DNA from: Candidatus Magasanikiibacteriota bacterium
GTDB lineage: Bacteria > Patescibacteriota > Patescibacteriia > Magasanikbacterales > GWA2-37-8
Length of the DNA stretch: 64,000 nucleotides
Direction of reading: 5' to 3'
Assembly: GCA_963840935.1 (NCBI GenBank)
Contig: CAWJAS010000001.1
Span: 706,790 to 770,789, forward strand
A model generated the notes under the pieces. It ran no database searches and was not told the DNA's origin. It saw nothing but the letters and a program-made list of their open reading frames with translations. Made by a program: the position numbers and the translations under genes. Positions 11,605-64,000 of the stretch are shown piece by piece (within the stretch, counting starts at the first letter, position 1; each line of letters starts with the position of its first letter).

Positions 11605-11708
11605 ATTTGTACGCCAAGGGATTCGTCACGGGATGAACCCGTGACGCCCTGAGTTTATCTCAGGGCGAACAAAAAAAATAAAGAATTATATTAAACACAG
11701 TATATATG

Positions 11709-11782: not shown

Positions 11783-11856
11783 AATTCCGCCGAATCTTAA
11801 TATAAATATAGTATAAAGTCAATAGTATATACCCGATTCACTCCATTAATTTTTCT

Positions 11857-34930: not shown

Positions 34931-37900
34931 CTAGAGTAAAGAAGGAAATACGCAGGAACACCTACATTGATTAGTGCAACTCTTTACTTGACCAAAAACT
35001 GTACACGCAGGACAATTGGACGGGTCGATATCACACTCTTCATAAGAAAAATTTATCCATGGATAAGGTGGGATCAATAAACCAGATGCGTAATTTATAT
35101 TAAGAACTCCTTGTCTTATCCCGTCACCGCAATAACCCCTTCCGACCAAATTGATAGGATCTGTCAATGATACAGGGAAACTATTTACCGCGCATCCGCT
35201 AGATATGCTGTTTACCACTGACTTACTAACATCCCAACCGGTACAATCCGTTTTACAAGGAAGACACCTGTCCACTTCATCAATAAACATTGTTCTAGCG
35301 AAACCTCCGTTTGACATGCCCGGGTCGCACAATTCACTTTCGTTTAAAATACCATTTCCACAAACAATATCTTTTGTAATAACATTTTTACAATCAGCGG
35401 AACAATATGTGCAATTCTGCTGAGGATAGATCGGCGTGCAAATAATTCCATTTTCGTCCTCTCCACGATCGCAAGCTTCAAATTCATCCACTATTCCATT
35501 ACCGCAAACTCCAACTGTCGGCACAGCGGAATCAGCGATGCATTCCTGTAATTGGCAATTTAAACACTCGGCCGTCCCGCTAAAACCACCATCCGTGGTG
35601 CAAGGTACCGGCGTAGTCCCTTCACATTGCTCACCGCTATCCGTTTGCAACATACCGTCTCCGCAATAACCGCCAAAACCCGTGCAATTCCAATTGCATG
35701 AAAAGGCATTAAAAATATCATACTGCCGGCAAGGCTGGCTATAATATATCTCGAGCATTTGATCAAGAATTGAATCGCTAGAATCATTAATTGGAATATA
35801 TTGGTATGTGCCACCAGCCGCCGCCCAATCATTGAATGCCTGAGTAAAATAAGCTACGCCAAACACATATGTTAATACGCCATAACCGGGGCTGTTTAAA
35901 AGCGTAATTTCTTCTGTAGGGGTTGGTACTCCCGTTGAAGCACCATCGGTTACTAAAATAAGATTAATTTGTCTCTGTTTATCTTCTTCGCTAAAATTCT
36001 CATATATATTTTCTCTCCACCATTTAATTGCTGCGCCGGTTGGAGTACCGCCACTTGCGGCGAAAGTTCCGACTACCCCAGCCACTTCTACCGGCATCGC
36101 AAATTTAATATCTGGATCTAAATAATCCACAAAAATATTTGAGCTTCTAAAAGAACCTATGCCTATTTTTGCCTTGGTTTCAGATTCGGCAAATTGTACG
36201 GCTAATAACGGAAGTTGTTCTTGCACATACTGCAATCTTGATTTTTCACCGGGTGGAGGCGTGGCGGCACCGGAAAAACTATAATTCATAGAACCTGACA
36301 AATCCACCAAAAAGTAATAGACTGGTTCGGTTGTGAATCCTTTTTTTGTTTCTACCCCCGGCCTATAAGCGCAAGTCACGGGTTGAGTTGCGGTTGCTAA
36401 AACAGTATCGCAAAATTCACCCGAATCCAAAACTCCATTTCCGCAAGTTTGAAAAATACCGGAACAACCCGTGTTGCATCTGCCCGGCTGGCCATTTAAT
36501 AATCCATCATCACAAACTTCTCCGATTGAATATTGAATTTTGCCATCTCCACAAGTTCCTCCGATCGCCTCGGCGCAAGTAGTGAGAGATTCGGCTCCCC
36601 AAGCACACTGGCTATTGCAGGTTTTTTTGGTAGCTGAGGCAGGGCACGCCACCGTATTATAACTTACCGATCCGGGCGGGTCGCACTCCTCTCCACTACC
36701 TAAAACTCCATCACCACAATATACATTATATGGCGAGGAAATCTCATTGGCCGAAGCGCAAACTCCATATTCAAACAATACTTTGTTGAAAGTAAAATCA
36801 TTTAAAAAATTAAAATAATTCTGAGGCTCCGGACTTTGAAGTGTTTCAAGATTTGCTCTGAGTAAATATGATTGAGTAGTTGAAACAAAACTATAACGAT
36901 AGGCATATGACGAAGTATTGCAAGCAAAACTAAACCGCCTGTCTTCCGCGCTCCAACCGGTCACTGGATCATGCAGAACGCACAGCCCGGCATATAAATT
37001 ACCGATTTCAGCAGTATCCAATTCACGAGAATAAAACGCTATATTGTCGATTTTACCGTTAAAACTCTCACCCATTTCAATACTCAAAGTATTTGTGGCA
37101 TACGGGAATGAAGGCTCTGTGATAGTTACAGAGGCTCCATTCGGAGGGACCCTGAATGTCTCACTAACCAAATTGCCATTGATATACAATTTGCCTGTTT
37201 TTGTGTTTTTATTAAAAGTAGCGGAAATATAATACCATTGATTTAAACCGAGCGGTTCCTGCGAATCAATGGCATAATATTTATTCGGGTTAGAAGCTTC
37301 AGGGAATATTGCAAAACGAATAGTGCCGTTGTTAAACCTTACTTGTGACCCGGTAAACTGAAGACCGCTATACTCAAGAATAAATCCTCCTAAACTATTT
37401 CCATCTCCATCCGAACCACCCTTTTTAATAATTGTGGCAGTGTTTCTTTTGGTCGGATAAATCCACGCTGAAACTGAAAAATTATCGCCATTATATTCAT
37501 CAAAGTTCCCGGCAACTACTTTGGCCGATGAATCACCAGCAAATTCAAATGCTTTACCGTGCCCCTTGCCGGCAACTGTTTGCACCGTTCCCTCAATAGT
37601 CGCATTGTTACCTATCGCCCCCTCGTCTTTATTGCCTTCGTCAGCCGTCCAATAGCTTGATCTTCCGCTAATCGGTATGGTGGCACAATCAGCATCTCTA
37701 AAACAGGCTTCATATTGATTGCCCGATACTGGTAAAAAGCATGTTCCACTTTGCGCTAATTTATTTATCGGGTCGACCGGAAGCTGTGTGTTTAATTGCG
37801 AACCCAAATCAGACCAGGTGGTTGGCCAAACACTAAAAGCATGACCGGGTAAATATGTATTTTCCGGCAAATTCGGATAACCGCCGTTATATGGCAAACT

Positions 37901-40900
37901 ATCATAAAACAAATCACGCATTTCGTCTGGATTCAAAGCTCTGGCATAAATCCTCACATCATCAATATCGGCTTTAAAAACAGAATCGCAACCCAAGTCT
38001 AACGCTGAGCATTTCATACAATTACCAACACTACTGCAAATTGGCGTACCAATTCGAGGTTTCCCTTCATACATATGACCAAAGGAGGACGGATAAGAAT
38101 CACTACCGGATAAAGCACCGTCGACATAACACGAAACATTTGTTTGCCCGGCTTGTCGATCAAAAACGACTGCTATGTGATGCCATAAATTATCATTAAC
38201 TTTATCTTCAGAACATAAATAATCCGCCCCGTTATATGAAATTCTATAACTTACCTTTCCATTGCTAATACCAAAATAATATCTATTATTCGTACTATTC
38301 GGATCGGCGTCATTTGTAACCGTATACGCCCGATACTGACTCGAGGTTGTTTTTATCCAATGAGCGATTGTAAAAGACCTATTACCAATATCTGTCGCTT
38401 TTGTTGCAACCAAATACGCCGGCTGTTCCAAATGGAGAGCCTGGCTAATTCGCCCGCTTAATAAAGATGCTTTTCCTGTTGATTGATTAATTACGGCTTC
38501 GAACCCGCGACCGGTACTATCAGGTAATTTCCCATAAGTAACATAATCCATCGGCCAAATGGCGACGGCTCCTCTGCCCCACTCAATACTTTTTATCATT
38601 CCACGCAAATCATTCAAACGAGTATAGTTTCTTTGTAATTTATCTTTTTGGTTATAGCAAAAATAATTGCTCTTTGTGGTTGTGGGACTGGCTTTTTTTA
38701 TTGCTTCCATTTGCGCCAGACAATCCATATCGTTTGAACACTGCATTCCATAATCTATATTTGCGCCACTATAATCGGATGCGCAATATGGATCGTTTTT
38801 TAAACGAAGATTGAATTTTAAATACTTAATTATTTGATTAAATACTTCTTTTGTTTGGGCGGTGGCGTCGCTATTAATGCTAAACTGGTAAATATTTGAA
38901 TAAATATTAAATGTTGTCGGGTTGGTGTATAGGGGCTGAACCAACGCATCAATATAATAATTATTTCCATCGGTCAAAGCGTCAAAACCGTCTATTTTTA
39001 CCGAGTTCATCTGGCCAGTGTAGCCTTGAGACGCATACCAATCACTTATTGATAAATGATTGGAATTATAAAAAATCTGAATACCAATGGCATCTTTGTT
39101 GTTATTATTAATAAAAATATATCTTTTCACATAAGGTGAACCAACTGACGGCGTCCAAATTTGGCTGGTTGTAACATTTGGCAAATCATCGGCTATACCC
39201 ACCATACCATAATCCATGCAATAATAGGTGGAAAAATCATGTTCCTCGTCCTTGAAAGGAAAATTATCAAGCGAGCCGGAAGGCCAGCGATTCTCGCATA
39301 AAAATACTACGATTCGCGACTTTCCAGTAACGATCGGGGAAGCGAGCGGAAAAATATTTTCTGTAAAACGTGATGTGGCTGTTAAATCAACTTCTCCATT
39401 GCGATTTTTGGCAGTAACCACATTCACGGTGCCGGTGGCGTTTGCTATGGCAATAAATTCATTTTGAGCAGGGCCCCAATCATATTCCCACGAATAACCG
39501 GCCACCGGTTGGATGTACTGGTCATTTTGAGAAATTGATTTTACCTCAAAATCTTCTGTAACGCCGGACTTATTAAACATGTGTTCATCCGGATCAATTT
39601 CCGCTTTGTCCAATACACATATTTCATTACCGGTAATAAATTGCCATTGTGCGGTATTGCCAATACTCACTCCGCGAACATCTTTTGCGCCGGGTCTAAA
39701 AATAATGGCGTAGTCGCTGTCAAAAGCGAGCGGTTTATTGAGACTAATCAAAACAGAGGAGGTTGAATTAACACCCTTTGGGTCATTAACAATAACGCTG
39801 GGCGTTCCTGTTTCATCGCCAACGCAATAAATATTAGCATTAAATTCACTACGCGGTGTGTCAGCCGATGCTTTTATGCCGAATAAATTTTTAACCCAAC
39901 CTGTAAAACCGGCCCATAATCTTTTATACCATGGTTGTATCTGGTCACGCGCGTCCGCGATATAGCCCCTTACAAGATCCGTCACATCAATTTGACCAAC
40001 CGGACATTCGGGGGTTGTCGTGGCAATATTATAGCCACGAGCAATATAAACTGCACCTGGCAGTGTATTAATATCAATTACCTTGTTAAAAGTGGCTTCA
40101 ATATATGTATTTGGGCAAACATCAAACGCGGTCGCAACCTCAGAACTTGAAGGCATGGTGCGAGCGGGATAAGTATCAATCAAGAGCGCGCGTTCATAAC
40201 AGCATGAATTTTCCGCCACACCCATAAGAGGATTATTTGTTTGTATTTGACATTCAAGATCAGTATTAAAACCGCATAAAATTTCGAATTGTCCTTTGCC
40301 GGATTCGGTATAAATTTTTTCATCAACTTCTTGCTCACCGGTTGCGGTAATATCTGTAATTTGCGTATTGTTGGGCGTGGTAGTACCAAGACCGATTCCA
40401 ACTGCCAAGGCCCAAGGGTCAACAAACTCGCGAACATAAACAAAATTCTTTTCGCAATCGGGATCTTCGCCAATACCGACAATACCGTCTCCACAAAGCG
40501 AAGAGGTAGAATACATTAAAGACGATCCTTCATATTGCCCGATTGAGTTACATCCTTCTGATTTGATTACACTTGTATAAATTGGATTATTTTCAATATC
40601 TCTCACTACTAATGTGGTGGTAGGTGAACATTTTTTTAGCGAATCATCAAACACATTTATCAAACAACGGTCTGTGCAAATGAGCAGAGGATTAGTTGCG
40701 TCCTCGCAGGCCTTATCTTCATCCGGACTGGCTATATCATCACCGCAAATACTTTTTGCCTTGGCGCAAGCGGTGTTGAATTCAGACATTGAAAATCCGC
40801 CATAGGTGGTAGTATTATTGTCATCAACGCACCAACCGGCATATAGCGCTGAACCTAAATGCAAACACTTTTCAGAACAAAATAGCGATGAAGTCGAACG

Positions 40901-43900
40901 CCAAAAATCGGGCGAGGTTCCAAGGTCGCAATCTTCGCCCACGCCAATCATGCCATTTCCACAAATTGATGCGCCAGTATCTTCGGCTCCGGTTTGAGGA
41001 GATGAACCGGCATAAAGACAATTTGATGTGCATCCAGCGGATGTGGCTGGATTATTTGGGTCACATTTTTCGCCTTTGAGCGGGTTTACCACGCCATCTC
41101 CGCACAAGCCGTAATCAATAGTACCACCATAAGATATGGTTGTTGTTACATTATTATTCCCCGGTCGCAAACAATTAAGAGTACACGCCACTGTATCACC
41201 TATTTTTCGAGGAGGGTCGCAGTCTTCCCCGGCTTCCACCGCCATATTCCCACACAAAGGTTCCATTACTCCACCATAGGGAATTGAACTTCCTTTTTTA
41301 ACACAATTGGCGGTGCAAAAAGAATTTTTTCCTTTTGTTTTAAATTCCACAACCTCGGCAACCAAAATATCGCTTGATGCCCAATCCCAATCAAGCGACC
41401 ACGCGTTTAGCAATTGGCCTTCCGGGTCACAAGAATCCGGCGCTGAACGAGCCTGGGAAGAATAAACTTTGCGCGAATCAATGGTCAGGGCTCTATACAA
41501 AACCGGAGTTACCGTCACGCTGTCAACCGTGCATTTTTCACTTTTTGTTCTGAACCTCCAGCTAAACGCCTCTTGCATTGGCTTACCTTGAGATGATGGT
41601 TCATTAATTGTTTTTTGAGACCAAAGCTGTGAAGTTTGGTCGCCCACACTATCACCCGTTTTGGACAAAACCACCAAATACAAGGTATCTTTTTGCCATT
41701 CAGGATTTGGGTCTTCTGTTGTCGCCATCGGAACAATACTTAAAAACCTTAAATCATCGCCAAACTTCACATCCAAATCATAAGACGGAATCTGAACAGT
41801 AGAAGAACAATTTTCATCAAAACACTTATAAACTTTCACGCCATTATCAACATTATATGATGACATTCGAATATTAAATCTTGCTCCAATTTCCGCGTTA
41901 GTACATGCTTCCAAGCAATTCGGCCAATAATCAACCACGCGCGGTTTTGACAAATCAATTGTTAACGGACTAACACCGATTTTTTGATCATAATCAAATT
42001 CATTTATACCTTGATAAAGGGCAAAAACTTCTCCGGGCGTTAAATCTTTTTTGTATATTCTCACGTCGTCAATATCGCCGTGCCAAAATTCATTTGGGGT
42101 TGGATGAATTTGCGCGCCGATGTATGCATATTGTTGTACCAAATACCACCCCGGTTTGGCTTCTTTCGCCACTTGAACTCCGTTTGCATATAATGTGGCA
42201 TAAGTTCCGTCATAAGTTAAACAAATATGATTCCATATATCCGCCTGCCAAAAATTATTGACTTGAATATCATCTCCATATCCACCGGCAACCAAATGAC
42301 TGCCCAATCTTCCGATAAACATCGCTCGTCCGGTTCCCATCGAACCATAGGCAACCAGCCATTTATATGAAAAATTGACATCGGACGTTTTACCCCAAGC
42401 GCACATGGTTCGCGAATTTTTTGCATCCGGCAGAATCCACGGATTTGACAATACGACTACGCCATCAGTACCGTTCAATCTTATTGCCCTGTTTATTTTA
42501 CCATTCACAAAAGTAACCCCGCCTTGAATAACACCGTTATTTTCATCACCACCCATACTCATATCCAAAACATTATCTCCATCAAAAGTCCACCAACTTA
42601 TCAAGCCATTCTCTGAAGCAAGACTGCCCTTAGTGGCGGTTGCTTCAATGTTTGCCGCGTCTTCCGGATTTACTAATCCCACACTTACGGTATTGCTCAA
42701 GGCTGAAACTTGTTGCATATTGCCGTTCGTGCCTGTTGAAGCTCCGTACAGTTCAGCGTAACTATTTCTGCCGGCCTGAACCGACCATTCCCATTCATAA
42801 CCATCCATATTCATCATTATACATTTTTGGTCGCTTAGCCCAGTCCCGCGATAATAAAAATCCGTCCCCAAATCGTCCGTATTATCTTTAATATCTCGCC
42901 TCATAATCGGTTCTTCCAAAATTGACGTCCAATATGTATACGGGGTAACCACTACTCGTGCCAATTTACAATCCCGCGCGTCTGTTTTAAAAACAAAACA
43001 ATAAGCCGAATCTGCTCCGCAAGTGCTTTGTGGTTTTAGATTTTGGGGGCCCAAAGCAATTTCATCATCGCCATACATATATGATGTCGGCGCCGACATT
43101 AAATCTGTTTGCAATACAACATGATAATAAGTATCATCTTCCCACTGTCCGCTTTGCGGAAACATTTGAACATAGTCATGATTGGCATTTTCCACGGCCG
43201 AAGCGGGATACAAAACATAGCTATCATTTTTCATTTGTACTGGCCCGCCAACATGTACACAAGAATTGACTGTTGGAAAAAAAGCTCCTTCTAATGAAGA
43301 TGTGGTACATTTAAAAACTTGGATATTATTCGCATTTACAGAACTCTGTAACATTCTCATGGAAAATTCAACCGTTATTTCAGCTGTCCGACATACATTA
43401 AAATGATCGTTGTTTTCAGACAATGACCAGCGAATATTCGGTGATGGTGATGGTAAATTCAATCCTAAATCCGTTTCGCTATTACATCTTTCAACAACTC
43501 TCGCGGTCGGAGGGAAAGGCCCTGTGTTAAATCGCCACATATAACCGGTGGATCGCGTTTGTCCATCGCACAATTCCGTATTCAAACGACAAATTCCGGC
43601 ATCATTACCGGCAGTGCAACATTGATAAGCCGGACTAGCACAAGTATTATTATTTTCTAAACAATTAAAAACAGTAAAGGGCATGCTGTTGCCCATCTTT
43701 CCATCAGTTGAGCGATACATGACGACCGGACCCGTCTCTGTATCCCAAGGCGGTTGAACAACCGCACGAGTATTGGAAACGGAAATGGTACCAGTGGTTG
43801 TTCTTCCGGTGATCGACAAAGGATCGGCGGCTGATAGCCAAAAATACGGCACGGCCAAAACACTGTCCCTGGTATAATATTCACCAAATATCTGCATTGT

Positions 43901-46171
43901 CGCCGTTTGGGCAAATGGAATTGGACCGCTGGCAGGGTCAATTTTACAAATACCCGGAGCGGGGTTACCTGACTCCAAAGCAAAAGTTGCTCCAACCGGA
44001 CTAATTGCGTTATCGCTTGAACGTTGAATTTGAACTTTATAATTTCTGCCCTCCTGTACGCTTGAAGTTGGGAACTTCACTACCACTTGCTTGTCACTCC
44101 AAGTTGCGCCTTCACACTCTTCCGGGAAATCAAAAGTTCCATAAACCGCTTCGGTTTCTTCGTATTTAAATAATACTTTTCCCGTATAACTGCCAAAATT
44201 TTTACCGGTGATTGTAATGTATTCCCCTCTCGCGCCATCTTCAGGATAAATACTCTCAATCATCGGCGCGCCTGAATCCAAAACTTCTCGCACGTTAAAC
44301 TGAACGCTGTTACTATTTTTATTATCATTCATTAATTTTACGGGAACAGCGCCGGTTCCAAGAGCCGGCACTCGAGCTGTCACGCTATTGCTTGACCAGT
44401 TATAAATTATCGGAGTGGAAGAAGCAAAAAATACATTATCTTGGCCTTGCGTTTGGCTTGACCCAAAATTCTCACCAATCAAAACAACATTTGTATATGG
44501 AGCGCCATAATTTGGCACAACGGCGCAAAGCCCGGGCAACAATTCATCATTAACAGTAAAATTCCCTTGGTAGCCCCAACCATCGTTATCTGTGACATCA
44601 ACAAATTTTGTTTCTTCCGTGCCCGCGGTTTCCACTTTAATCGGACCGGTTATGGCATCAGGAGGAACTTTGACAATAATTTGCGATTTAGTCCAATTAT
44701 CAATTCCAGCTCCGCAATTCGCCACAAATGCTTCCGACCACCCGTCCCCTTCTGATTTTCTAAAATAAACATGACCGCCGTCATCACCAAAATATTGACC
44801 CCAAATTGAAACATAGGTGGTGCTAGCGGCACCTGCGGTCGGACTAAAACCGTTGATTCGCATTCTATCGACACAAATTCCTTCTTCACACCAACCACTA
44901 GCGCAATCGCTATTCTCGGTACATGATTCACCGGCGCACGAGCCACATTCGCCTCCACAAGCCGGCGGACCGGCAATAGTTTCTCCAAAATTTAGCTGGT
45001 CATCAAAACAATGGCCGGCTAAAAGCATAATATCGCGTGAAGTTGAAGCAGACAATGCGGCATTATCAAAAACAATTGATTCTAATGAATATGTACCAGT
45101 TGGTGACGTGCCGGACGACCAATTTAATGTGGTGGTGCCAGATTTTTGGCACCCGCTTATTGACTGGCTATCGATTGGCGTACCGTTAACATATAATGAA
45201 ACATTTTGAACACCAAAATTATCGGTATAATATATTTCTACCGGTACCACCGAACCTTGGGCAAATGATTGATTGTTAAAAGGATTGATTATCGCAATGG
45301 TCGGCGGGTCGACATCGACACTATCTCCGGTAACAAATTCAACCGCCGGAGTGTTTTTGCATTGAAGTTTATAATTCCCAACATTACAATTCAAACTTAA
45401 CGCATCCTGACTTTTTATATTTGAAGAATTTACAAAATATATTTGATAAGTAGTGCTGGCATCTAAACAATCATTTTGTGGCGGTTCCACTCCGCAATCT
45501 CCGATTGGGTCAAAAACAATCGCGTTTTGTTTATCAATAGAAACCAAGCGCCAAATTCCCTCTGCCGGCGCACCCGTTTGCTTATTTCTTATTACCAAAT
45601 TATCGGGAACTGTGGCAATGTCAATCGCTTTATTGAAAGTTATTATCGGGTGAATATTCCTGATACCGCAACCCAAATCATCGCCCGGCATTGAGGTGAT
45701 ATACAAAACATTGGTAAACGACCCCGGAGGGCCACCCGGACCGCCAGGACCCCCTTCTCCGCCGGTGGTGGCGCTGACCAATGCATTAATAACAAAACTG
45801 GCAATGGCATAGGCGGATAAAATAATCGCCAAACCGATTGCCGCGTTAACCAAAATCTTTTTTGCTTTTTGTATTTTTTCTTCATTTCCGCCGGCTGTCA
45901 TCCAGACAAATCCGCCATAAAGAATGAGAACCAGTGCGACAATTCCCAAAAACCCCAAAGCCACCCTAATAATTCTTGCCACCACCAAACGAATGTCTGT
46001 GGTCGGTAGCCCGATAGTCTCCCCGATTTCATCCATTTGCATCTCATCGACAGTGATGAGTCCTGTGGCAGGCTCTGTTTGAGCCAACACTTGAAGAGCA
46101 AAAAATAGACCGGCCCAAATTATTACGACCAGAAGCAGTGAAGATAAAATTTTTCTTTTTTGGCCGATCAT
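34931..46171 (-). CDS. Giant (3,746 aa) membrane-anchored extracellular protein. Domains are an N-terminal two-TM module, multiple concanavalin-A-like/LamG lectin domains, a vWA domain, more than 8 Myxococcus-type cysteine-rich repeats, and Ig/IPT-like beta domains.
   Basis: One uninterrupted 11.2-kb ORF. LamG signatures are DDVRIY(A/K)xxL, repeated at least 3 times. The vWA MIDAS motif is YYFLVDLSGSMNY...LVTDGAS. The Cys-rich repeats are CGDGxxxxxEECD, CGNGVLDSGEFCD, CGNGIVDEFEACD and similar. The N-terminus (...GLPTTDIRLVVARIIRVALGFLGIVALVLILYGGFVWMTAGGNEE...) is paralogous to the upstream 711-aa protein. Confidence 0.85.
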   Translation of the reverse strand: MIGQKRKILSSLLLVVIIWAGLFFALQVLAQTEPATGLITVDEMQMDEIGETIGLPTTDIRLVVARIIRVALGFLGIVALVLILYGGFVWMTAGGNEEKIQKAKKILVNAAIGLAIILSAYAIASFVINALVSATTGGEGGPGGPGGPPGSFTNVLYITSMPGDDLGCGIRNIHPIITFNKAIDIATVPDNLVIRNKQTGAPAEGIWRLVSIDKQNAIVFDPIGDCGVEPPQNDCLDASTTYQIYFVNSSNIKSQDALSLNCNVGNYKLQCKNTPAVEFVTGDSVDVDPPTIAIINPFNNQSFAQGSVVPVEIYYTDNFGVQNVSLYVNGTPIDSQSISGCQKSGTTTLNWSSGTSPTGTYSLESIVFDNAALSASTSRDIMLLAGHCFDDQLNFGETIAGPPACGGECGSCAGESCTENSDCASGWCEEGICVDRMRINGFSPTAGAASTTYVSIWGQYFGDDGGHVYFRKSEGDGWSEAFVANCGAGIDNWTKSQIIVKVPPDAITGPIKVETAGTEETKFVDVTDNDGWGYQGNFTVNDELLPGLCAVVPNYGAPYTNVVLIGENFGSSQTQGQDNVFFASSTPIIYNWSSNSVTARVPALGTGAVPVKLMNDNKNSNSVQFNVREVLDSGAPMIESIYPEDGARGEYITITGKNFGSYTGKVLFKYEETEAVYGTFDFPEECEGATWSDKQVVVKFPTSSVQEGRNYKVQIQRSSDNAISPVGATFALESGNPAPGICKIDPASGPIPFAQTATMQIFGEYYTRDSVLAVPYFWLSAADPLSITGRTTTGTISVSNTRAVVQPPWDTETGPVVMYRSTDGKMGNSMPFTVFNCLENNNTCASPAYQCCTAGNDAGICRLNTELCDGQTRSTGYMWRFNTGPFPPTARVVERCNSETDLGLNLPSPSPNIRWSLSENNDHFNVCRTAEITVEFSMRMLQSSVNANNIQVFKCTTSSLEGAFFPTVNSCVHVGGPVQMKNDSYVLYPASAVENANHDYVQMFPQSGQWEDDTYYHVVLQTDLMSAPTSYMYGDDEIALGPQNLKPQSTCGADSAYCFVFKTDARDCKLARVVVTPYTYWTSILEEPIMRRDIKDNTDDLGTDFYYRGTGLSDQKCIMMNMDGYEWEWSVQAGRNSYAELYGASTGTNGNMQQVSALSNTVSVGLVNPEDAANIEATATKGSLASENGLISWWTFDGDNVLDMSMGGDENNGVIQGGVTFVNGKINRAIRLNGTDGVVVLSNPWILPDAKNSRTMCAWGKTSDVNFSYKWLVAYGSMGTGRAMFIGRLGSHLVAGGYGDDIQVNNFWQADIWNHICLTYDGTYATLYANGVQVAKEAKPGWYLVQQYAYIGAQIHPTPNEFWHGDIDDVRIYKKDLTPGEVFALYQGINEFDYDQKIGVSPLTIDLSKPRVVDYWPNCLEACTNAEIGARFNIRMSSYNVDNGVKVYKCFDENCSSTVQIPSYDLDVKFGDDLRFLSIVPMATTEDPNPEWQKDTLYLVVLSKTGDSVGDQTSQLWSQKTINEPSSQGKPMQEAFSWRFRTKSEKCTVDSVTVTPVLYRALTIDSRKVYSSQARSAPDSCDPEGQLLNAWSLDWDWASSDILVAEVVEFKTKGKNSFCTANCVKKGSSIPYGGVMEPLCGNMAVEAGEDCDPPRKIGDTVACTLNCLRPGNNNVTTTISYGGTIDYGLCGDGVVNPLKGEKCDPNNPATSAGCTSNCLYAGSSPQTGAEDTGASICGNGMIGVGEDCDLGTSPDFWRSTSSLFCSEKCLHLGSALYAGWCVDDNNTTTYGGFSMSEFNTACAKAKSICGDDIASPDEDKACEDATNPLLICTDRCLINVFDDSLKKCSPTTTLVVRDIENNPIYTSVIKSEGCNSIGQYEGSSLMYSTSSLCGDGIVGIGEDPDCEKNFVYVREFVDPWALAVGIGLGTTTPNNTQITDITATGEQEVDEKIYTESGKGQFEILCGFNTDLECQIQTNNPLMGVAENSCCYERALLIDTYPARTMPSSSEVATAFDVCPNTYIEATFNKVIDINTLPGAVYIARGYNIATTTPECPVGQIDVTDLVRGYIADARDQIQPWYKRLWAGFTGWVKNLFGIKASADTPRSEFNANIYCVGDETGTPSVIVNDPKGVNSTSSVLISLNKPLAFDSDYAIIFRPGAKDVRGVSIGNTAQWQFITGNEICVLDKAEIDPDEHMFNKSGVTEDFEVKSISQNDQYIQPVAGYSWEYDWGPAQNEFIAIANATGTVNVVTAKNRNGEVDLTATSRFTENIFPLASPIVTGKSRIVVFLCENRWPSGSLDNFPFKDEEHDFSTYYCMDYGMVGIADDLPNVTTSQIWTPSVGSPYVKRYIFINNNNKDAIGIQIFYNSNHLSISDWYASQGYTGQMNSVKIDGFDALTDGNNYYIDALVQPLYTNPTTFNIYSNIYQFSINSDATAQTKEVFNQIIKYLKFNLRLKNDPYCASDYSGANIDYGMQCSNDMDCLAQMEAIKKASPTTTKSNYFCYNQKDKLQRNYTRLNDLRGMIKSIEWGRGAVAIWPMDYVTYGKLPDSTGRGFEAVINQSTGKASLLSGRISQALHLEQPAYLVATKATDIGNRSFTIAHWIKTTSSQYRAYTVTNDADPNSTNNRYYFGISNGKVSYRISYNGADYLCSEDKVNDNLWHHIAVVFDRQAGQTNVSCYVDGALSGSDSYPSSFGHMYEGKPRIGTPICSSVGNCMKCSALDLGCDSVFKADIDDVRIYARALNPDEMRDLFYDSLPYNGGYPNLPENTYLPGHAFSVWPTTWSDLGSQLNTQLPVDPINKLAQSGTCFLPVSGNQYEACFRDADCATIPISGRSSYWTADEGNKDEGAIGNNATIEGTVQTVAGKGHGKAFEFAGDSSAKVVAGNFDEYNGDNFSVSAWIYPTKRNTATIIKKGGSDGDGNSLGGFILEYSGLQFTGSQVRFNNGTIRFAIFPEASNPNKYYAIDSQEPLGLNQWYYISATFNKNTKTGKLYINGNLVSETFRVPPNGASVTITEPSFPYATNTLSIEMGESFNGKIDNIAFYSRELDTAEIGNLYAGLCVLHDPVTGWSAEDRRFSFACNTSSYAYRYSFVSTTQSYLLRANLETLQSPEPQNYFNFLNDFTFNKVLFEYGVCASANEISSPYNVYCGDGVLGSGEECDPPGSVSYNTVACPASATKKTCNSQCAWGAESLTTCAEAIGGTCGDGKIQYSIGEVCDDGLLNGQPGRCNTGCSGIFQTCGNGVLDSGEFCDTVLATATQPVTCAYRPGVETKKGFTTEPVYYFLVDLSGSMNYSFSGAATPPPGEKSRLQYVQEQLPLLAVQFAESETKAKIGIGSFRSSNIFVDYLDPDIKFAMPVEVAGVVGTFAASGGTPTGAAIKWWRENIYENFSEEDKQRQINLILVTDGASTGVPTPTEEITLLNSPGYGVLTYVFGVAYFTQAFNDWAAAGGTYQYIPINDSSDSILDQMLEIYYSQPCRQYDIFNAFSCNWNCTGFGGYCGDGMLQTDSGEQCEGTTPVPCTTDGGFSGTAECLNCQLQECIADSAVPTVGVCGNGIVDEFEACDRGEDENGIICTPIYPQQNCTYCSADCKNVITKDIVCGNGILNESELCDPGMSNGGFARTMFIDEVDRCLPCKTDCTGWDVSKSVVNSISSGCAVNSFPVSLTDPINLVGRGYCGDGIRQGVLNINYASGLLIPPYPWINFSYEECDIDPSNCPACTVFGQVKSCTNQCRCSCVFPSLL

Positions 46172-51896: not shown

Positions 51897-51970
51897 GGGC
51901 GTATAGCTCAGCTGGTTAGAGCGTTTCGTTGACATCGAAAAGGTCTCCCGTTCAAGTCGGGATACGCCCA
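51897..51970 (+). tRNA. tRNA-Val (anticodon GAC)
   Basis: GGGCGTA / GCTC-AGCTGGTTA-GAGC / TTTCG-TTGACAT-CGAAA / TCCCG-TTCAAGT-CGGGA / TACGCCC-A. Confidence 0.85.
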
Positions 51971-51991
51971 CAAGTAAGAGTTTCACAATAA

Positions 51992-52065
51992 GGGCAATTA
52001 GCTCAGATGGTTAGAGCGCGTCACTGATAATGACGAGGTCGGAGGTTCGATTCCTCCATTGCCCA
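51992..52065 (+). tRNA. tRNA-Ile (anticodon GAT)
   Basis: GGGCAAT / GCTC-AGATGGTTA-GAGC / CGTCA-CTGATAA-TGACG / GGAGG-TTCGATT-CCTCC / ATTGCCC-A. Confidence 0.85.
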
Positions 52066-52097
52066 CATTATAAAATTACCACCTTTAAGAATAATAA

Positions 52098-52241: not shown

Positions 52242-53780
<1,539 letters not shown>

Positions 53781-54129
53781 TAAATAAGATATTTGATTTT
53801 ATTTTTTGACGCCTAAGCGCCAAAAAAGAATTTGTATTTTTTGTTTTTAGGAATAAACGATTATCTATGAACAAACCGAAATTTGTTCATGTGGTTTTTG
53901 TCACATTTATATTGTCAACGATCGTTCTTTTCGCTTTCACAATCGCGTACTCATACGATTCTTGTATTTTTCGAGTTTGAATAAACTCGCGCGGAAAGAA
54001 AAAAGAGGAAGCCAAACTGACTTACTCTTTTCTCCTTCCAGTTTCCTCTTTTCGCAAAAATCAACGAGGACTTAGAAAAATATTTGATTTATTAAAGATG
54101 AAATTTTTGTCAGTATTTTTTTAGCTTGT

Positions 54130-56377: not shown

Positions 56378-58348
56378 TCATTCTTGATTCGGCACATCAT
56401 CGATTTTAACGCTCAATAGCTTCGAAATTCCATCCGAGGCCATGGCCACTCCATAAAGCGCGTCAACTGCGTGCATCGTCACTCGATTATGAGTAATCAA
56501 AATAAATTGAGCGTGCTTGGATAATTCGGAAATAATTTTGGTAAAACGAATTGTATTTGCTTCATCAAGAGCGGCTTCGACCTCGTCAAGCACCACAAAA
56601 GGCGAAGGATTATAATTCAAAACAGCACAAATTAAAGCAATGGAGGTGAGAGTGCGCTCCCCTCCAGACAAAGAATTCAAACTTTTTATTTTTTTACCCG
56701 GCGGATTGGCGGTCACTTCAATACCCATCAAAATCTTTTCTTTTTTATTTTTTAATCGAGTATTTTCCGCAGAAATAATTTGTTCTTGATTTTCAAAATC
56801 AATATTTTCGCCAACATTTTCCGGCACTTCTTCCTCGTACACTTCAACCAAATCCGCATTACCCCCTTCAAATAAAATATTAAAAAATCTGTTAAATTCT
56901 TTGCGTATATTTCTAAAAGCGACCACTCGTTTTGATTTCATCAAATCATCAAGTTCAGCGGACATTTTGGTCAAATCGGCTGTCGCCTGACGCAAGTCAG
57001 TCAACTGATTAAACAAGAAGTTAAATCTCTCTTTGGTGGTTTCGTATTCGCTTATCACTTCTTCGTCAATACCTCCGATTAAATTCAATTGGTATTTTAA
57101 TTTTTGAATTTCTAACGCCAATTTTTCATAATCTTCAACTTCCAAAATATCCTGGCGCCGGCCAATAATTGATTCCAAAGAAATATTCATGTCATTTCTC
57201 ACTTCTTCATTCAGCGATTCCGCTCTGGTTTCAAGCCGAGCCAAAGCCACCCTCAGGTCATTGCGAACCGTGGCAATGCCGTTCAAATCGTTTTGTTTAA
57301 TTTGCATTTGTTCTTGAAGAGAAAAAACATGTTGTTTCTTTTGTTCCTCGCGTTCATTAAAATCCCTCATTTCATTTTCGATTTTTTGGACTATGGCGAC
57401 TTTGGCGTTCATCTCGGCCATCAATCTTTCTTTCTCGCGATTTAATTCCGATAATTTTATTCCATACTCTTCAGGGCTCATTTCCACAAACGATAATTCG
57501 CGTTCAATTTGCGCCAACTCTTTGTCCAAATTTTGTTTTTCGGTTTCAACAAGCGCCCGTCTGGCAACATTTAACTCGCGCTTAACCTCCAAATCAGACA
57601 ATTCTTTTTTGGCTTGTCCAAGCATTTGTTCAATATCCAAAAGATTTTGCTGTTCCAGAGCAAGAGAACGTTGGCATTCTTTGATTCTATCTTCCGCCCC
57701 CATCATTATTTTTGTGGCAAAACTGATTGAACCAAAACGGTCTTTCCGCCACCCTCCTTTCATCACACCTCGCTTTTCAATCAAATCACCATTCAAGGTG
57801 ACCATGCGCGCCCGACCAATGCCGATTAGCTGGGCGGTTTTCATATCTTTCACCACCAATGTATTGCCAAGAACAAATTGAAAAATATTTTCAAATTTTG
57901 AATCAAATTTTATCAAATCAACCGCCTTGCCGACAACACCCGGCTCGTTTACTAATTCGTTTAAAACCGCGTCTTCCTGCCTGGCGGTAATTTTGTTAAT
58001 CGGTAAAAATGTGGCCACACCCAATTTGTTTTCTCGCAAATAATCAATCGCTCGCTTGGCAATATCATCCGTTTCCACCACCACCGAAGAAAGATTGCCT
58101 CCGGCAGCCACATCAAGAGCCAGCCGATTTACTTCGTCGGTCTCACCAAGCTCGGCGACAACACCGAATATTTTTCCAATTTGAGATTTGTTATTCAACA
58201 CCGCTTTTATGGCCGTAAGCCCGGAAACCTGCAAAAAATTCTGCTCTGATTGGTAGACCTGATCTAGCCAGGGATGTGCTAAGTGATGTGCCTCATGTGG
58301 TTTTAACAAAGCAGCAATCAGCGTTGAAGTATCAAATACTAGTCTCAT
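56378..58348 (-). CDS. smc: SMC (chromosome condensation/segregation ATPase) fragment. It has the hinge, second coiled-coil and C-terminal head only. The N-terminal Walker-A head and first coiled-coil are absent. The first about 40 aa look PIN-domain-like.
   Basis: Hinge is GKIFGVVAELGETDEVNRLALDVAAGGNLSSVVVETDDIAKRAIDYLRENKLGVATFLPINKI. The ABC signature is LSGGERTLTSIAL. Walker B and D-loop are VVLDEVEAALD. There is no GxxGxGKS anywhere. The N-terminus MRLVFDTSTLIAALL resembles the start of PIN (VapC) domains. Confidence 0.7.
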   Translation of the reverse strand: MRLVFDTSTLIAALLKPHEAHHLAHPWLDQVYQSEQNFLQVSGLTAIKAVLNNKSQIGKIFGVVAELGETDEVNRLALDVAAGGNLSSVVVETDDIAKRAIDYLRENKLGVATFLPINKITARQEDAVLNELVNEPGVVGKAVDLIKFDSKFENIFQFVLGNTLVVKDMKTAQLIGIGRARMVTLNGDLIEKRGVMKGGWRKDRFGSISFATKIMMGAEDRIKECQRSLALEQQNLLDIEQMLGQAKKELSDLEVKRELNVARRALVETEKQNLDKELAQIERELSFVEMSPEEYGIKLSELNREKERLMAEMNAKVAIVQKIENEMRDFNEREEQKKQHVFSLQEQMQIKQNDLNGIATVRNDLRVALARLETRAESLNEEVRNDMNISLESIIGRRQDILEVEDYEKLALEIQKLKYQLNLIGGIDEEVISEYETTKERFNFLFNQLTDLRQATADLTKMSAELDDLMKSKRVVAFRNIRKEFNRFFNILFEGGNADLVEVYEEEVPENVGENIDFENQEQIISAENTRLKNKKEKILMGIEVTANPPGKKIKSLNSLSGGERTLTSIALICAVLNYNPSPFVVLDEVEAALDEANTIRFTKIISELSKHAQFILITHNRVTMHAVDALYGVAMASDGISKLLSVKIDDVPNQE

Positions 58349-58611
58349 GACATCAATGCTGCCAGTCGCTGTTCACGGTCTTGTTGCACAAAATCTGTTT
58401 CCTGGTCCGTCAGCTCACCATTATAGACCAATACATGATTTTCATAGGTCAAATGAGAGGGCATTTCCTTAACCCGCACCTCGAATGCCATCACTCTGGC
58501 GTCTTCACAATTAGGGACATCCCGGTACCCCAGTCCAAATTGTTTTCGCAAAGCTTCCGAAACAGCGATAATTCCTGGCTTTTCCAGAGTAATCTCTACC
58601 GTTGAATTCAT
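58345..58611 (-). CDS. Hypothetical 88-aa protein. Its stop overlaps the start of the SMC-fragment ORF (ATGA), so it is a possible antitoxin-like partner of the PIN-like N-terminus.
   Basis: The ORF sits in a region of intermediate GC and shows translational-coupling geometry. No recognisable family. Confidence 0.3.
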   Translation of the reverse strand: MNSTVEITLEKPGIIAVSEALRKQFGLGYRDVPNCEDARVMAFEVRVKEMPSHLTYENHVLVYNGELTDQETDFVQQDREQRLAALMS

Positions 58612-58852
58612 GCTTTTTCTCCGATCTCAAAGTACAGGCCCTGTTGTGATGAGCTTTCCGAGTCTTAACTCAATTCTCACTACTTTTCACCCATTCGTCA
58701 AACTCACGAAGCAATTGCTGTTTCACAGGAGCTGGTGCGACACGTCACAAAGGCATTGCGCGCCCACACGGGCCAGATCAACCTGATCATAGCCAAATTC
58801 TGTGGCCAGCACCTGATATTCCTGGGTGAGCGACGTGTTAAAGAGCGGCGGG

Positions 58853-59845
58853 TCACTCACTGTTGACCGTGACCAGCAGCCCCATGCGATCCAGTTCGGG
58901 GAAGGGATGGTCCGCCAGGTTGGGATAGACGTGCGGACAGATGTTACTGGTCGGGTTGAGTTCCAGGGGAATCTGGCGCTCTTTGAGCAGGGCCAGCAAC
59001 TTCTCATCTTCAATGGCGCGCACACCGTGTCCAATGCGGTCGGCATGTAAGGTTGTCACCGCGCCCCAGATGCTGGCCGGTCCCACCGTTTCCCCGGCAT
59101 GAGGCACCGAGAGCAGACCAGCCGCTTTGGCGGTGCGAAAGACCTGGGCAAACGGCTCCGGCGGCGCACCAACTTCATAGCCGCCCAAGCCAAAGCCGAC
59201 CACCCCTTTGTCCTGACCGGCTAACGCATACGCCAGTGTCCGTTCAGCGGGATAAGCGTTGTAATATTCCTTGGTACGCAAACCCAACCGGCGTAATTGG
59301 GCGTCCACCACCCGCTTGACGCCACGCACCTTGCTCGACTTATGCCACGGTTTGAAACTGGTGTTGCGCGGAATGTCAAAAACCCAGCGCATTTCGACGC
59401 CAAAGTCCCGTTTTGCCTCGGCAAGGCGCGGCCAGTTTCTAACCCTTCAAAGAGCGCTTCTATCGTTAACCCTTTCTCCTGCGAAGTCAGTGTGGGTAAA
59501 AGGCGTAAAGGTCACCTTCGCGGTAGCGGATATTCTGCGCCGCCATATCCGCGCCACAGGCATGGACGATCAGCGCAAAATCTTCCGGCGTGCGCAAGAG
59601 ATCCGAAATCGTCCAGTAAATCTGGATAAAGTGCGGGAAATCGGTAAAGGTAAACCAACGGCGCAGGCCATCCAGATCGGTCGTGGCAGCTTACTCTTCC
59701 CGCCGGTGCCGGGGCGCGCCAGTTCCAGCAACGTCTCCGGTTGGATTGCGCCTTCCAAATGCACATGAATTTCCGCTTTGGGCATGGCCTGGATAAAATC
59801 ACGGGTTGAGGGCTGAAGGTTGAGTGGTACATTCATGGGATTCAT
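58853..59845 (-). pseudogene. add: Adenosine deaminase, disrupted by at least two frameshifts. High-GC region.
   Basis: The N-terminal fragment (59570..59845) has PKAEIHVHLEGAIQPETLLELAR. The C-terminal fragment (58853..59392) has GFGLGGYEVG, HAGE and LELNPTSN. The middle is out of frame. Confidence 0.6.
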
Positions 59846-60107
59846 CGTTGATCAAAATTTTGTTTGACGTGAATGGCAGGTAGAATGGTAAAGGAAGTGC
59901 CAGTTCAACGTTCGCTAAAGAATGGCTGAGAAAGAGAAAACCCTTCCTGTCAATGGAAGCAGTATGCTTTAAGCTTGCGAAATGCCCCCTGCGTATGATC
60001 TGGCCAGGCGATAACCGTTAGCTCACTTCAGAAATTCTAACCGAATTCATGTATATTGATCAAACTCAAACCGATTCGACGCAAACCATTCAACCGCTTG
60101 CATACAA

Positions 60108-61395
60108 GTGGAGTTGGGTAAGACGCGCAGAAGCGTTTTTTATCTACTGATGTTCACTATTGCTTTGATGTTGAGTGGTGGCAGCGCCCTGCCGGCCACG
60201 CAAGCCCGCGACCGCGGCATGGCGATGATTGTCGCCGGCTGGGGCTTTGATCTGCTCGGTTGGGAAGCGGAAGCGGTTGCGGCCAAATTACGTGCCCTAC
60301 TCAACCAACCCGCTGCTGGATTGACCTATACAGAAGCGGTCAGTCTGGTTCGCCAGTATCTGGATCACGCCCAGCAAATTCGTGAGCCTCGAGAAGGAGA
60401 TCAATCGTAGCTTTGCTGAAAATCAACACAAGGCCACATCAGAGATAAAACAACAGCAGGCCCAAATTACTGCATTACGGGCGCAACAACAGCAGAAACG
60501 CCCTACGGTTGAACAGATCATCGAAGGCCAGGTCACCTATGAATTGCAGCAAGAGGGGCTAGAATGGGCAAACTGGGCTTTCCCACCCGTTCAGTTTACC
60601 TTTGTCGAACCACCGCGGTAAATTGGTCGTCAGCCCGCGTGCGATAAAATCACCACGATGTATAGCCAAATGCTGGATGCCGAAATGAGCATTGACCAGC
60701 TTGAGCAAAGTGAAGCCGCTTATCGCCAACAGTACAATGTCAGTGCCTATATCGCCAATATCGGCGGGTTAGGCGCCTTCCCCACCATGGTGATTGACCG
60801 CGCTGGTCTCTCATGGATTTTGAGCACGGTCGCCCACGAGTGGTGTCATAACTATCTCTCGCTCTTTCCGCTGGGCCTCAACTATCTCACCAGCGCCGAT
60901 CTGACCACGATCAATGAAACCGTAGCCGAGATCGTCGGCAATGAGAGTCGGCGACCGCGCACTGCGTACCTTCTATCCCGATCAAGTGCCACCCCCGACG
61001 CCGCAAGAATCACCGGTCCAACCAGCGCCCAATGCGCCGACACCGTTTGACTTTTATCAAGAATGCGCGAAACCCGCCTGCGGGTCGATGGCTTACTAGC
61101 CGCCGGCCAAGTCGAAGCCGCCGAGCGCTATATGGAAGCCCGCCGTCAATTTTTTGTAGCGCATGGCTACCCCCTGCGCGTCCTTAACCAGGCATATTTT
61201 GCCTTTCACGGCAGCTATGGCACCAGTGCTGCCAGCACCAGCCCCATCGGCCCTAAGTTAGAAGAATTGCGCCGCTTGACGCCTGATCTCCACCTTTCTC
61301 CAGGTTGTACGCAGAATCACATCAGCCGAAGAACTCGACGCCATTCTAGCCGACTGGCAAAGGCGCTGATCGCTCCGGCCAGTTGCAATCACTAA
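60108..61395 (+). pseudogene. Fragmented membrane-anchored HExxH-type putative metallopeptidase. It comprises four consecutive ORFs in alternating frames.
   Basis: ORFs 60108-60410, 60382-60621, 60658-61050 and 61063-61395 abut or overlap. Present are VAHEWCHNY (HExxH) and an N-terminal TM/signal. GC is about 58%. Confidence 0.35.
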
Positions 61396-61423
61396 TCACC
61401 CGATCACCCAATACCGAATCGCT

Positions 61424-62161
61424 ATGCGCTTTTCTTTCACCACCCAACCGGCGACCTTCTTGGAGCGGCCCAATCGCTATCGCATTGTCGCTCAACTACA
61501 CGAAAATCAGCAGATCGTCAACGCCCACTGCCCTGACCCTGGCCGCCTGCGCGAGTTACTCATTCCCGGCGCCACCGTTCACCTGAGCAACGCCAGCCAC
61601 AATGAACGCAAAACGGCCTATGACCTGCGTTTTGTTGAACATCCAGAGCACGGTCAACTGGTCAGCCTCGACACCCGCATTCCCGATCAAATTTTCCAAG
61701 AGGGACTGGAAACCGGCTTTTTCAGCCCCTTCCGTGGCTACCACGCCATGCAACGCGAAGTCCCTCTCCCCCATCCACCAGCCGATGGCGGTGTCCATAG
61801 CCGGATTGACTACCGGCTGATCGATGCCAATGGACAGCCCTGTTGGATCGAAGTGAAGTCGGCCAGCCTGGTCGAAGAGCGCTGCGCCCGCTTCCCTGAT
61901 GCCGTCACGGCGCGTGGACGGCGCCATGTGCTGGAGCTAGCCGAAATGGCGCAACGTGGCGTGCGCACAGCCATTGTCTTTATCATCCAGCGCCCCGACG
62001 CCGACCTGCTGCGGCCCCAGTGGAGCACCGATCCGGATTTTGGGTATGCGTTAATAGCAGCCCAAGTTGCCGGGGTCGAGATTTATGCCTATACCTGTAT
62101 CCTCACCCTGGAACAGGTTACGCTAGAACGAGCAGTTTCGGTTGTTCTAACCATCGACTAA
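61424..62161 (+). CDS. sfsA: Sugar fermentation stimulation protein A (SfsA, nuclease-fold DNA-binding protein)
   Basis: 245 aa. The RPNRYRIVAQL start, the DLRFVEHPEHGQLVSLDTRIPDQIFQEGLETG run and the RIDYRLID...CWIEVKSASLVEE run are conserved SfsA blocks. Confidence 0.85.
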   Translation: MRFSFTTQPATFLERPNRYRIVAQLHENQQIVNAHCPDPGRLRELLIPGATVHLSNASHNERKTAYDLRFVEHPEHGQLVSLDTRIPDQIFQEGLETGFFSPFRGYHAMQREVPLPHPPADGGVHSRIDYRLIDANGQPCWIEVKSASLVEERCARFPDAVTARGRRHVLELAEMAQRGVRTAIVFIIQRPDADLLRPQWSTDPDFGYALIAAQVAGVEIYAYTCILTLEQVTLERAVSVVLTID

Positions 62162-62238
62162 CCAATTACCAACAAAACGCCAACATTTTCGCGCTTTACA
62201 AAAACGAACTCCTGTGCTATACTAGTATTGTCAGTCAA

Positions 62239-62649
62239 GGGGATGTCCGGTTTCGACGGGGCAGGAAGTGCTTTGATTGCAGGTCGTAGAGCGTGTGGCT
62301 ACGTAAAAAGACGCAAAACATATAAATGCCAACACAGGCAAATCCTTCAACTTCGGTTTCGCTAGCGCCCCTATGGCGGTTGCAGCCTAACTAAAAGTGG
62401 AAGATTGATCCTTTAACCAGGATCACGGCCCGTTCTAGTGTTACTCTCAGGCTAGACGCAAGCTGAAATATACTGCTGAGTTGCGGGGGCTAGACGCCGA
62501 TACGGCCCCTTAAGACACATCGGCTAGTTGGGCATAGGAATCTCGTCGCCGGAGTCCGCCAGCGAAACAACAAATGTGCAACTAAACCTGTAGACGTCTC
62601 TGTACAAGTGTTTCGGACGGACGCGGGTTCAATTCCCGCCATCTCCACC
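62239..62649 (+). ncRNA. ssrA: tmRNA (ssrA). The predicted tag peptide is ANTGKSFNFGFASAPMAVAA.
   Basis: The 5' end is GGGGATGTCCGGTTTCGACGGGG. The 3' tRNA-like end is GGACGCGGGTTCAATTCCCGCCATCTCCACC. An internal tag reading frame begins at GCCAAC and ends at ...GCGGTTGCAGCCTAA. Confidence 0.85.
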
Positions 62650-62656
62650 TATAAAA

Positions 62657-62690
62657 AGCGGCCCGGATATGATCCGGGCCGCTTTTTTAT
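62657..62690 (+). terminator. Rho-independent terminator after tmRNA
   Basis: AGCGGCCCGGAT-atg-ATCCGGGCCGCT, followed by TTTTTT. Confidence 0.7.
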
Positions 62691-63429
62691 TTATACTATA
62701 ATAATTCGTGCGTTAACAGAATTTCCTCTACTTCTGCCGCAAATTGCAGTAAAGGTCGGGGGGACATTCCCATTGGCAGAGGCGCATGTACATCAGTTTG
62801 GCCAAAGGGGTGGTAGTGCCAAACACCATAGTTCATAATCGCAGCCATAAAGTCTCCCCGCAGCACTTACTAAAGCAAGGCTTAACCGATTACTGCGCAA
62901 ACTCAAAAAAGTCTGGATGAACAAGTCATCGTTGATTTGCGATCCGTGGTCATTGTACGGTCAGTACGCTCAACAATCACGAATGAACGCACAAACCAGA
63001 ATGTATCGCTAACTTCAATTGCTTCAAGCAGTAACTGGTCAATTGTTGGCATGGCAAATCAGTTAGCTGCCGCTGGATTGTTTCAATACCGTCAACCGCC
63101 GTCTCCCAGGCCATCGCATCGATTCAACTTCCCAGCTATAGTTCTGCTGCTTGTCATATGCTGCTGCTCAAATTCGAGCAAAGGTCATTCCATATTTTTT
63201 CTGCAACTGCCGATCCGTCAAGCTGACCACGCTAAGCGGCGACGAATGTCAGTGGAGCAGGCTACTCAATTTTTGGTCAATTTCGGTAGCCTGTCCAATG
63301 ATCGATTGTTTAAATGCTGGGCAATATTGTCAGAAATCTGAATTGTCACACTCATAGTTCCTCCACACCAACGTTTTCACGATTGATGATATTAACACCA
63401 GTATACGAGATGATTTCTATTTTGATTCA

Positions 63430-64000
63430 GCAAAAGTCGTTGCCCAGTCGTCTGTCTGACCGATCAAGCAGCCACAACCTCGCGAATGGCCTGGCTGATC
63501 CGCCCCACATTCGGGATCGAGCATCCTCCAAGGGCGGGCTATAGGCCACCAGGGCGCCACCCATGTTGACCCGTTTCACCGGTGCGTCGAGATAGTAAAT
63601 GCCCATGATCGGCGGCCAGCGACACAATATCACCACCCCAGCCCGCACCATGGGGCGCCTCTTCCACAATTACCAGACGGCTGGTCTTAGCAATCGAAGT
63701 CGAGTATGGTCTCTTCATCCAGCGGGACCATGCTGCGCAGATCGATCACTTCCACGTCGATGCCTTCTTCGGCGAGCGCTTTTCAGCGGCTAGCGCACGG
63801 TGCATCATCAGTTGCGATCCACGACCACCGTTACATCTTTGCCCTGGCGGCGCACCTTGGCCTTGCCTAGTTCCATAGGACCGGTGTTGTCGGGGACATC
63901 TTCACTGATGTTATCGAGCCCCTTGTGTTCCAACACAAAGACCGGATTGTTCTCCCGAATCGCGCCACGCAGCAGCCCATAGGCGTCGGTCGGCGTGCCG
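63430..64000 (-). pseudogene. 2-oxoacid dehydrogenase E1 beta / transketolase C-terminal-domain gene fragment with several frameshifts. It runs off the right edge.
   Basis: The reverse-strand translation contains ...GTPTDAYGLLRGAIRENNPVFVLEHK..., ...EEGIDVEVIDLRSMVPLDEE... and ...VEEAPHGAGWGG... in different frames. Confidence 0.45.

Follow-up and report, generated by a model that had tools for sequence, protein, structure and literature searches.

Does the truncated smc gene of a Candidatus Magasanikiibacteriota bacterium reflect an event in the life of that organism or an event in the assembly of its genome? The question arises from a stretch of 64,000 nucleotides (GenBank assembly GCA_963840935.1, contig CAWJAS010000001.1, positions 706,790 to 770,789 of the forward strand; hereafter the window), in which an open reading frame (ORF) for the chromosome-segregation protein SMC lacks its N-terminal part, opens instead with residues resembling a PIN-domain (VapC) toxin, and lies beside a change in base composition. 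The original prediction offered two explanations without choosing between them: a genuine rearrangement that fused a truncated smc to the remnant of a toxin-antitoxin system, or a chimeric join between a genome of the candidate phyla radiation (CPR; Patescibacteria) and that of a high-GC organism. By comparison with relatives of both sides we recovered both parental contexts, an intact smc in a conspecific, and insertions and deletions (indels) in the foreign genes that are not accompanied by relaxed selection. These results argue for the second explanation and against the first. We conclude, with a probability of about 85%, that the window spans an inter-phylum assembly chimera in which a CPR genome was joined to that of a member of the Caldilineaceae (Chloroflexota).

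The ORF at the centre of this question (56378-58348, minus strand) encodes 656 amino acids (aa) and is made up of codons 1-31 of a vapC gene, one junction codon, and codons 395-1018 of smc. Its smc fragment, of Magasanikiibacteriota type (56378-58252, minus strand), comprises the hinge, the second coiled-coil arm, and the C-terminal half of the head. Pfam identified the hinge domain (PF06470, SMC_hinge) at ORF residues 59-173 (57830-58174, minus strand) with 100.7 bits and E = 9e-29, and the translation contains the ATP-binding cassette signature motif LSGGE (56657-56671) and the Walker B/D-loop region DEVEAALD (56564-56587), both on the minus strand. The fragment therefore retains two hallmarks of a bacterial SMC, the dimerisation hinge and, with LSGG and the DE of Walker B, the C-terminal half of the head, and on this inventory Pfam and translation agree with the original prediction. 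Only the C-terminal part of the head is present, matching positions 112-219 of the 220 in the Pfam SMC_N profile. In protein alignments, SMC homology begins at ORF residue 33 (QSEQNF), which corresponds to residue 395 of the relatives (1018-1024 aa). The earlier observation that the Walker A head and the first coiled-coil are missing was correct, but the loss amounts to 394 residues rather than about 500.

The ORF contains neither the N-terminal head half with its Walker A motif (GPNGxGKS), since it aligns to the relatives only from residue 395, nor the first coiled-coil arm (residues ∼170-394 of the relatives); of the two antiparallel coiled-coil arms of an SMC, it has just the one that follows the hinge. 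A tblastn search of the window with the 394-aa N-terminal half found no match, and the missing half of smc, like the genes expected upstream of it, occurs nowhere in the 64 kb. The species itself normally has an intact smc, as indicated by a full-length SMC of 1018 aa (P0121) in the same 90% cluster, which is encoded on a different NCBI/ENA contig (139 kb) and is identical at 621 of the 624 shared positions (99.5%). Hence, the organism almost certainly has a normal, full-length smc. Compared with the bacterial Smc of the Smc-ScpAB condensin, the window fragment is typical in its hinge, second arm, and C-terminal head half, all within the part that is 99.5% identical to P0121, and atypical in that neither the ORF nor any other part of the window contains the Walker A head half or the first arm. 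It is a normal CPR Smc cut in half, which departs from the family in these two respects only because the sequence ends there. A C-terminal SMC fragment alone cannot form an ATPase head, and the 656-aa PIN-SMC ORF is probably not a functional protein.

We traced the left part of the window to its own lineage. Searches with the SMC protein returned proteins of Patescibacteria/Magasanikbacteria, and when GTDB species representatives were scanned with the full-length SMC, the best match (74%) came from a metagenome-assembled genome (MAG) of Candidatus Magasanikiibacteriota. Three CPR relatives (L001, L002, and L003) share the gene order sigma70-HSP20-VanW-ClpP-DHH-smc-S16-KH-TrmD-16S-S26-HisRS-pilin. 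From the pilin gene onward the window keeps to this order until smc codon 395, where the match ends, and a blastn high-scoring segment pair (HSP) with L001 starts exactly at window position 58252.

On the other side of this position, the first 31 codons of the ORF (58256-58348, minus strand) are the 5' remnant of a Caldilineaceae vapC gene, which provides the ATG and the leader of the fusion. The leader is identical at 28 of 31 positions (90%) to residues 1-31 of a 146-aa PIN protein on L013, a Caldilineaceae-type contig, and that protein has Pfam PIN hits and a weak match to the NCBIfam VapC family TIGR00028. The proposed PIN/VapC-like opening of the ORF was thus real, although the stretch outside SMC homology measures 31-32 residues and not about 40. 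Pfam reported no PIN match on the fusion ORF. A complete PIN domain has about 130 aa with conserved acidic residues, of which only residues 1-31 with the first Asp (in the motif FDTS) are present here; on the Caldilineaceae contig L017 the alignment breaks off while the PIN gene has another 115 codons to run, giving it a full length of 146. Upstream of the leader lies a vapB-like antitoxin gene of 88 aa (58345-58611, minus strand), which overlaps the vapC start by ATGA (58345-58348). The VapB-like geometry that had been noted for this gene was borne out by the sequence and by 59% identity of its product to that of the 87-aa gene upstream of the PIN gene in L013; in L017 the same position is occupied as well. 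The 88-aa product matched no Pfam or NCBIfam family, and we found no vapB relatives in JGI metagenomes; the native vapBC context comes from the Logan contig L017. In its small upstream gene, translationally coupled to the toxin gene as in L013 and L017, and in its 90% identical leader, the window resembles a VapBC type II module. It differs from such a module in that only 31 of 146 toxin codons remain, the antitoxin matches no curated family, and the module stems from Caldilineaceae and not from the CPR genome.

The remaining genes on this side have the same origin. An adenosine deaminase gene (58688-59836, minus strand) was recognised by tblastn and by Pfam A_deaminase matches on three separate ORFs, since nine small indels break it into at least three frames. 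It is followed on the plus strand by a conserved Caldilineaceae gene of 439 or 441 aa and of unknown family (60049-61366; four ORF pieces from nine indels, found by tblastn with the L016 and L015 proteins), an intact sfsA gene for the DNA/RNA nuclease SfsA (61424-62161; Pfam SfsA and SfsA_N), and a transfer-messenger RNA (tmRNA) gene of Caldilineaceae type (62239-62650; ARAGORN and Rfam RF00023, 136.5 bits). The best named relatives of SfsA are Caldilineaceae proteins (85-86%), with 90-97% identity to the members of its cluster, and the tmRNA has 90% DNA identity to that of L016 and an identical tag peptide. The last gene, for the E1-beta subunit of a 2-oxoacid dehydrogenase (63464-64000, minus strand; Pfam Transket_pyr and Transketolase_C in the relatives), runs off the window; six frame-breaking indels and one 3-bp deletion spread its tblastn HSPs over three frames. 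A single blastn HSP aligns window positions 58255-62691 with positions 6845-11263 of L017 at 86% identity, and a second one covers the E1-beta gene at 92%. The order in L017 is LspA-RluD-PIN(146 aa)-87 aa-ADA-439 aa-SfsA-tmRNA-...-E1beta (ADA being the adenosine deaminase), and the gene order of the right part recurs in L015 (GCA_019637645.1, Caldilineaceae) and in L016 (a second Logan contig), with L013 in agreement; for E1-beta the synteny extends to L015, L016, and L017. By its gene content and order, the right part is ordinary core chromosome of a Caldilineaceae bacterium.

The two parents meet at 58252-58255 (no strand), where the CPR alignment begins at 58252 and the Caldilineaceae alignments end at 58255; at most two nucleotides (AC, 58253-58254) belong to neither. 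The original prediction had located an abrupt composition break next to smc. The break exists, with 41.8% GC in window positions 1-58252 versus 53.8% in 58651-64000, and comparing the tetranucleotides of the two halves, as had been proposed, placed the right block 6.8 standard deviations (SD) above the spread of the left blocks in distance from the left centroid. Its location did not hold. The real join is ∼400 bp to the left of the GC step seen at ∼58650, because the toxin-antitoxin module on the foreign side has only 45% GC, and it has the same GC in the native Caldilineaceae contig; we therefore rejected the GC step as the breakpoint. The description of the right side as uniformly 55-60% GC was also inaccurate, as GC there averages 54% and ranges from 0.45 to 0.62.

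The two sides of the window are thus collinear with separate lineages, and the sequence of either parent extends beyond the breakpoint, in L001 and L002 for the CPR parent and in L017, L013, and L016 for the Caldilineaceae parent. Up to base 58252 the window would represent the chromosome of Candidatus Magasanikiibacteriota, and from 58255 to its end a collinear piece of Caldilineaceae core chromosome, with a blunt join that runs from the middle of one gene (smc, at codon 395) to the middle of another (vapC, after codon 31).

The error pattern of the two sides differs as well. We counted ∼24 frame-breaking indels of 1-5 bp in ∼3 kb of foreign coding sequence (∼8 per kb), with insertions outnumbering deletions. 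The independent references L016 and L017 place the same indels at the same window positions, including those of the adenosine deaminase gene, and the broken genes are intact in L013, L015, L016, and L017. On the CPR side, compared at similar divergence (84-86% DNA identity for the two sides), not a single indel separates the 1,875-bp smc fragment from L001, to which it has 84% DNA identity, and hisS differs from its L001 counterpart by just two 3-bp indels, both in frame and one at the start of the gene. Once the indels are masked, the products of the broken genes share 84-95% of their residues with those of L016, and the genes have dN/dS (the ratio of nonsynonymous to synonymous substitution rates) of 0.07-0.15 and dN of 0.02-0.09; individually, dN/dS is 0.07 for adenosine deaminase (94.7% aa identity), 0.145 for the 439-aa gene, and 0.07 for E1-beta. 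These values equal those of intact genes (0.08 for sfsA, and 0.03-0.19 for CPR control genes compared with L001) and hence show no trace of relaxed selection, so that the indels behave like consensus errors at low depth and not like decay. The unequal error density of the two sides points to unequal read support along the contig, as a chimeric join predicts.

How could such a join have formed? We propose that a chimeric long read or an overlap error at low depth attached Caldilineaceae DNA to the CPR contig. The scant read support of the foreign organism would then have left small indel errors in the consensus, while the deeply covered CPR part would have come out clean. The blunt, repeat-free join and the type of indels suggest an event of this kind rather than a misjoin in a k-mer graph. 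Inter-phylum misassemblies of such kind are flagged by tools such as GUNC. Like other chimeric contigs and contaminated MAGs, the window consists of blocks that differ in phylum, GC, and tetranucleotides, are joined mid-gene, and are collinear with their own relatives. Unlike in those cases, the call was made here from comparative sequence and error density and not from read mapping, and the join is inside a very long contig (770.9 kb) and not between binned contigs.

Several observations weigh against an artefact. The diagnosis draws on sequence alone. The join lies inside a 770,905-bp contig deposited in NCBI/ENA, and the fusion of PIN and SMC is in frame. The indels are also unevenly placed: ∼1.2 kb (61290-62559, which takes in the whole sfsA gene and the 5' portion of the tmRNA gene) has no net frame-changing indel, which has P ∼0.003 under uniform placement given ∼6.5 indels per kb in the surrounding region. 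Within this stretch, L017 reveals only a compensating +1/-1 pair 4 bp apart (61507/61511) and an intergenic insertion at 62186. Finally, a protein search for the N-terminal 394 aa of SMC returned no match on the 770,905-bp contig, an absence that carries no weight, as the known full-length relatives P0002-P0004, which are 93-95% identical, were missed too. The stretch without net frame change would be explained by uneven depth or partial polishing, and the agreement of the two frames at the join is most likely a coincidence with a chance of one in three.

Could the Caldilineaceae DNA instead be a genuine insertion, fixed in the genome, that destroyed smc and whose genes are now decaying as pseudogenes? 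The contiguity of the deposited contig and the in-frame fusion would fit such an event, as would the visibly broken state of the foreign genes next to an sfsA and a tmRNA gene that are still intact. We consider it highly improbable. The conspecific with the 99.5% identical SMC keeps an intact gene, and loss of the Walker A head would be expected to inactivate Smc, a near-universal chromosome-segregation ATPase (Smc-ScpAB), in a genome with little redundancy. Neutral decay that produced nine indels in 1.1 kb should have brought far more nonsynonymous change than the low dN and dN/dS values allow, and we rejected pseudogenisation of a transferred island on dN/dS. Foreign DNA next to native genes is also seen in the horizontal-transfer islands of CPR genomes, and the window shares with them the contrast in composition. 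However, the GC of the foreign part has not shifted toward that of the CPR host, it consists of housekeeping genes such as those for tmRNA, a 2-oxoacid dehydrogenase E1 subunit, and adenosine deaminase, the genes on either side of the border are truncated, and its indels come without relaxed selection. Nor does the border have the mobility genes, insertion-site repeats, or tRNA of a genomic island. The ORFs in 58.2-64 kb include no integrase, transposase, or recombinase, there is no att-like repeat and no target duplication at the join, and the sole RNA gene on the right side, that for tmRNA, is 4 kb from the join and syntenic with Caldilineaceae.

A rare event in vivo would leave much the same sequence. 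One CPR cell or a small subpopulation might have taken up DNA of a Caldilineaceae neighbour or host and joined it illegitimately into smc, with one or a few long reads capturing the dead-end molecule and leading the assembler along it. The error-rich foreign part fits very few supporting reads, the join is blunt and non-homologous, and CPR bacteria probably rely on taking up DNA. Patescibacteria also co-occur with Chloroflexi genera in network analyses of wastewater plants (PMC10943839). Such a capture is nevertheless very unlikely to be what we see, as the same sequence is expected from ligation in vitro or from chimeras made in silico, which are far commoner, and nothing ties this CPR lineage to Caldilineaceae specifically; a literature search on the pair of taxa returned nothing relevant. 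The junction was not found in JGI metagenome contigs, although the lack of a match to its 24-mer there tells us nothing, since the source record belongs to NCBI/ENA. If a Magasanikiibacteriota cell living on or near filamentous Caldilineaceae did capture its DNA, the junction would be direct physical evidence of inter-phylum DNA capture by CPR bacteria and a pointer to the host of this bacterium. There is also little to suggest that the artefact was a misjoin at shared sequence in a short-read de Bruijn graph or during scaffolding, and we regard this as improbable. Such a misjoin would belong to the same broad class of artefact, and short reads underlie many public MAGs, but there is no k-mer or repeat common to both parents at the join, where they share only ∼5 nt. 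We rejected a repeat-mediated misjoin for this reason. Moreover, the window contains no Ns, and dense indels of 1-2 bp with a bias toward insertions are unusual for an Illumina consensus.

If the window is an assembly chimera, its main value is one of database hygiene, because the error is already in the public record. The fusion ORF is a called protein in public databases: one NCBI/ENA contig of 770,905 bp carries an identical protein (P0001) together with the Caldilineaceae SfsA (P0123), and the rest of this contig looks like a near-complete CPR genome. Taken at face value, the region would credit Patescibacteria wrongly with an adenosine deaminase, SfsA, a tmRNA of Chloroflexota type, and a 2-oxoacid dehydrogenase subunit, and it would suggest both inter-phylum gene transfer and a CPR bacterium without functional SMC. 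The analysis also yields a recipe for recognising chimeras without reads: recover both parental contexts across the breakpoint, compare, at matched divergence, how densely frame-breaking indels occur on either side, and check the broken genes for purifying selection.

The Caldilineaceae relatives differ from one another in places that the right part touches. Between rluD and the adenosine deaminase gene they carry defence or toxin-antitoxin cargo that varies: ParE with an antitoxin, PIN with the 87-aa gene, and CHAT-NACHT in L013 (1943-7154); a nucleotidyltransferase/HepT pair in L016 (5758-6626; also 9334-9886); PIN with the 87-aa gene in L017 (6498-7198; also 11294-12016); and nothing in L015 (7338-7367). 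The relatives vary behind the tmRNA gene too, with HigB in L017, and the pattern has the look of a toxin-antitoxin hot spot. In the window, the segment between the tmRNA and E1-beta genes (62692-63463) has a lower GC of 0.45-0.50 and no alignment to L015, L016, or L017. Its only sizeable ORF (62937-63341, plus strand) encodes 134 aa and had no match in NCBIfam, the sole library tried. A strain-specific insertion at the tmRNA gene may account for the segment.

The CPR part has some features of its own. The 16S rRNA gene (52244-53787, minus strand) is solitary, and since Rfam reported no 23S or 5S rRNA in the 64 kb, the rRNA genes appear to be unlinked. The gene has no large insertion, with model positions 1-1533 matched in 1,544 nt. 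Genes for tRNA-Val (GAC) and tRNA-Ile (GAT) at 51897-52066 lie on the strand opposite to 16S, while in L001 and L002 the same two tRNA genes follow 16S on the same strand, suggesting that the window carries a ∼300-bp inversion of this segment. A weak inverted repeat of 16 nt flanks the segment in L001, and the inversion may be real or another problem of the assembly. At the left end of the window, a reading frame of at least 1,086 codons (1-3300, minus strand) runs off the edge, which is why no ORFs were listed in this stretch of 46% GC. Further to the right, the minus strand encodes a giant ORF of 3,746 aa at 34931-46171.

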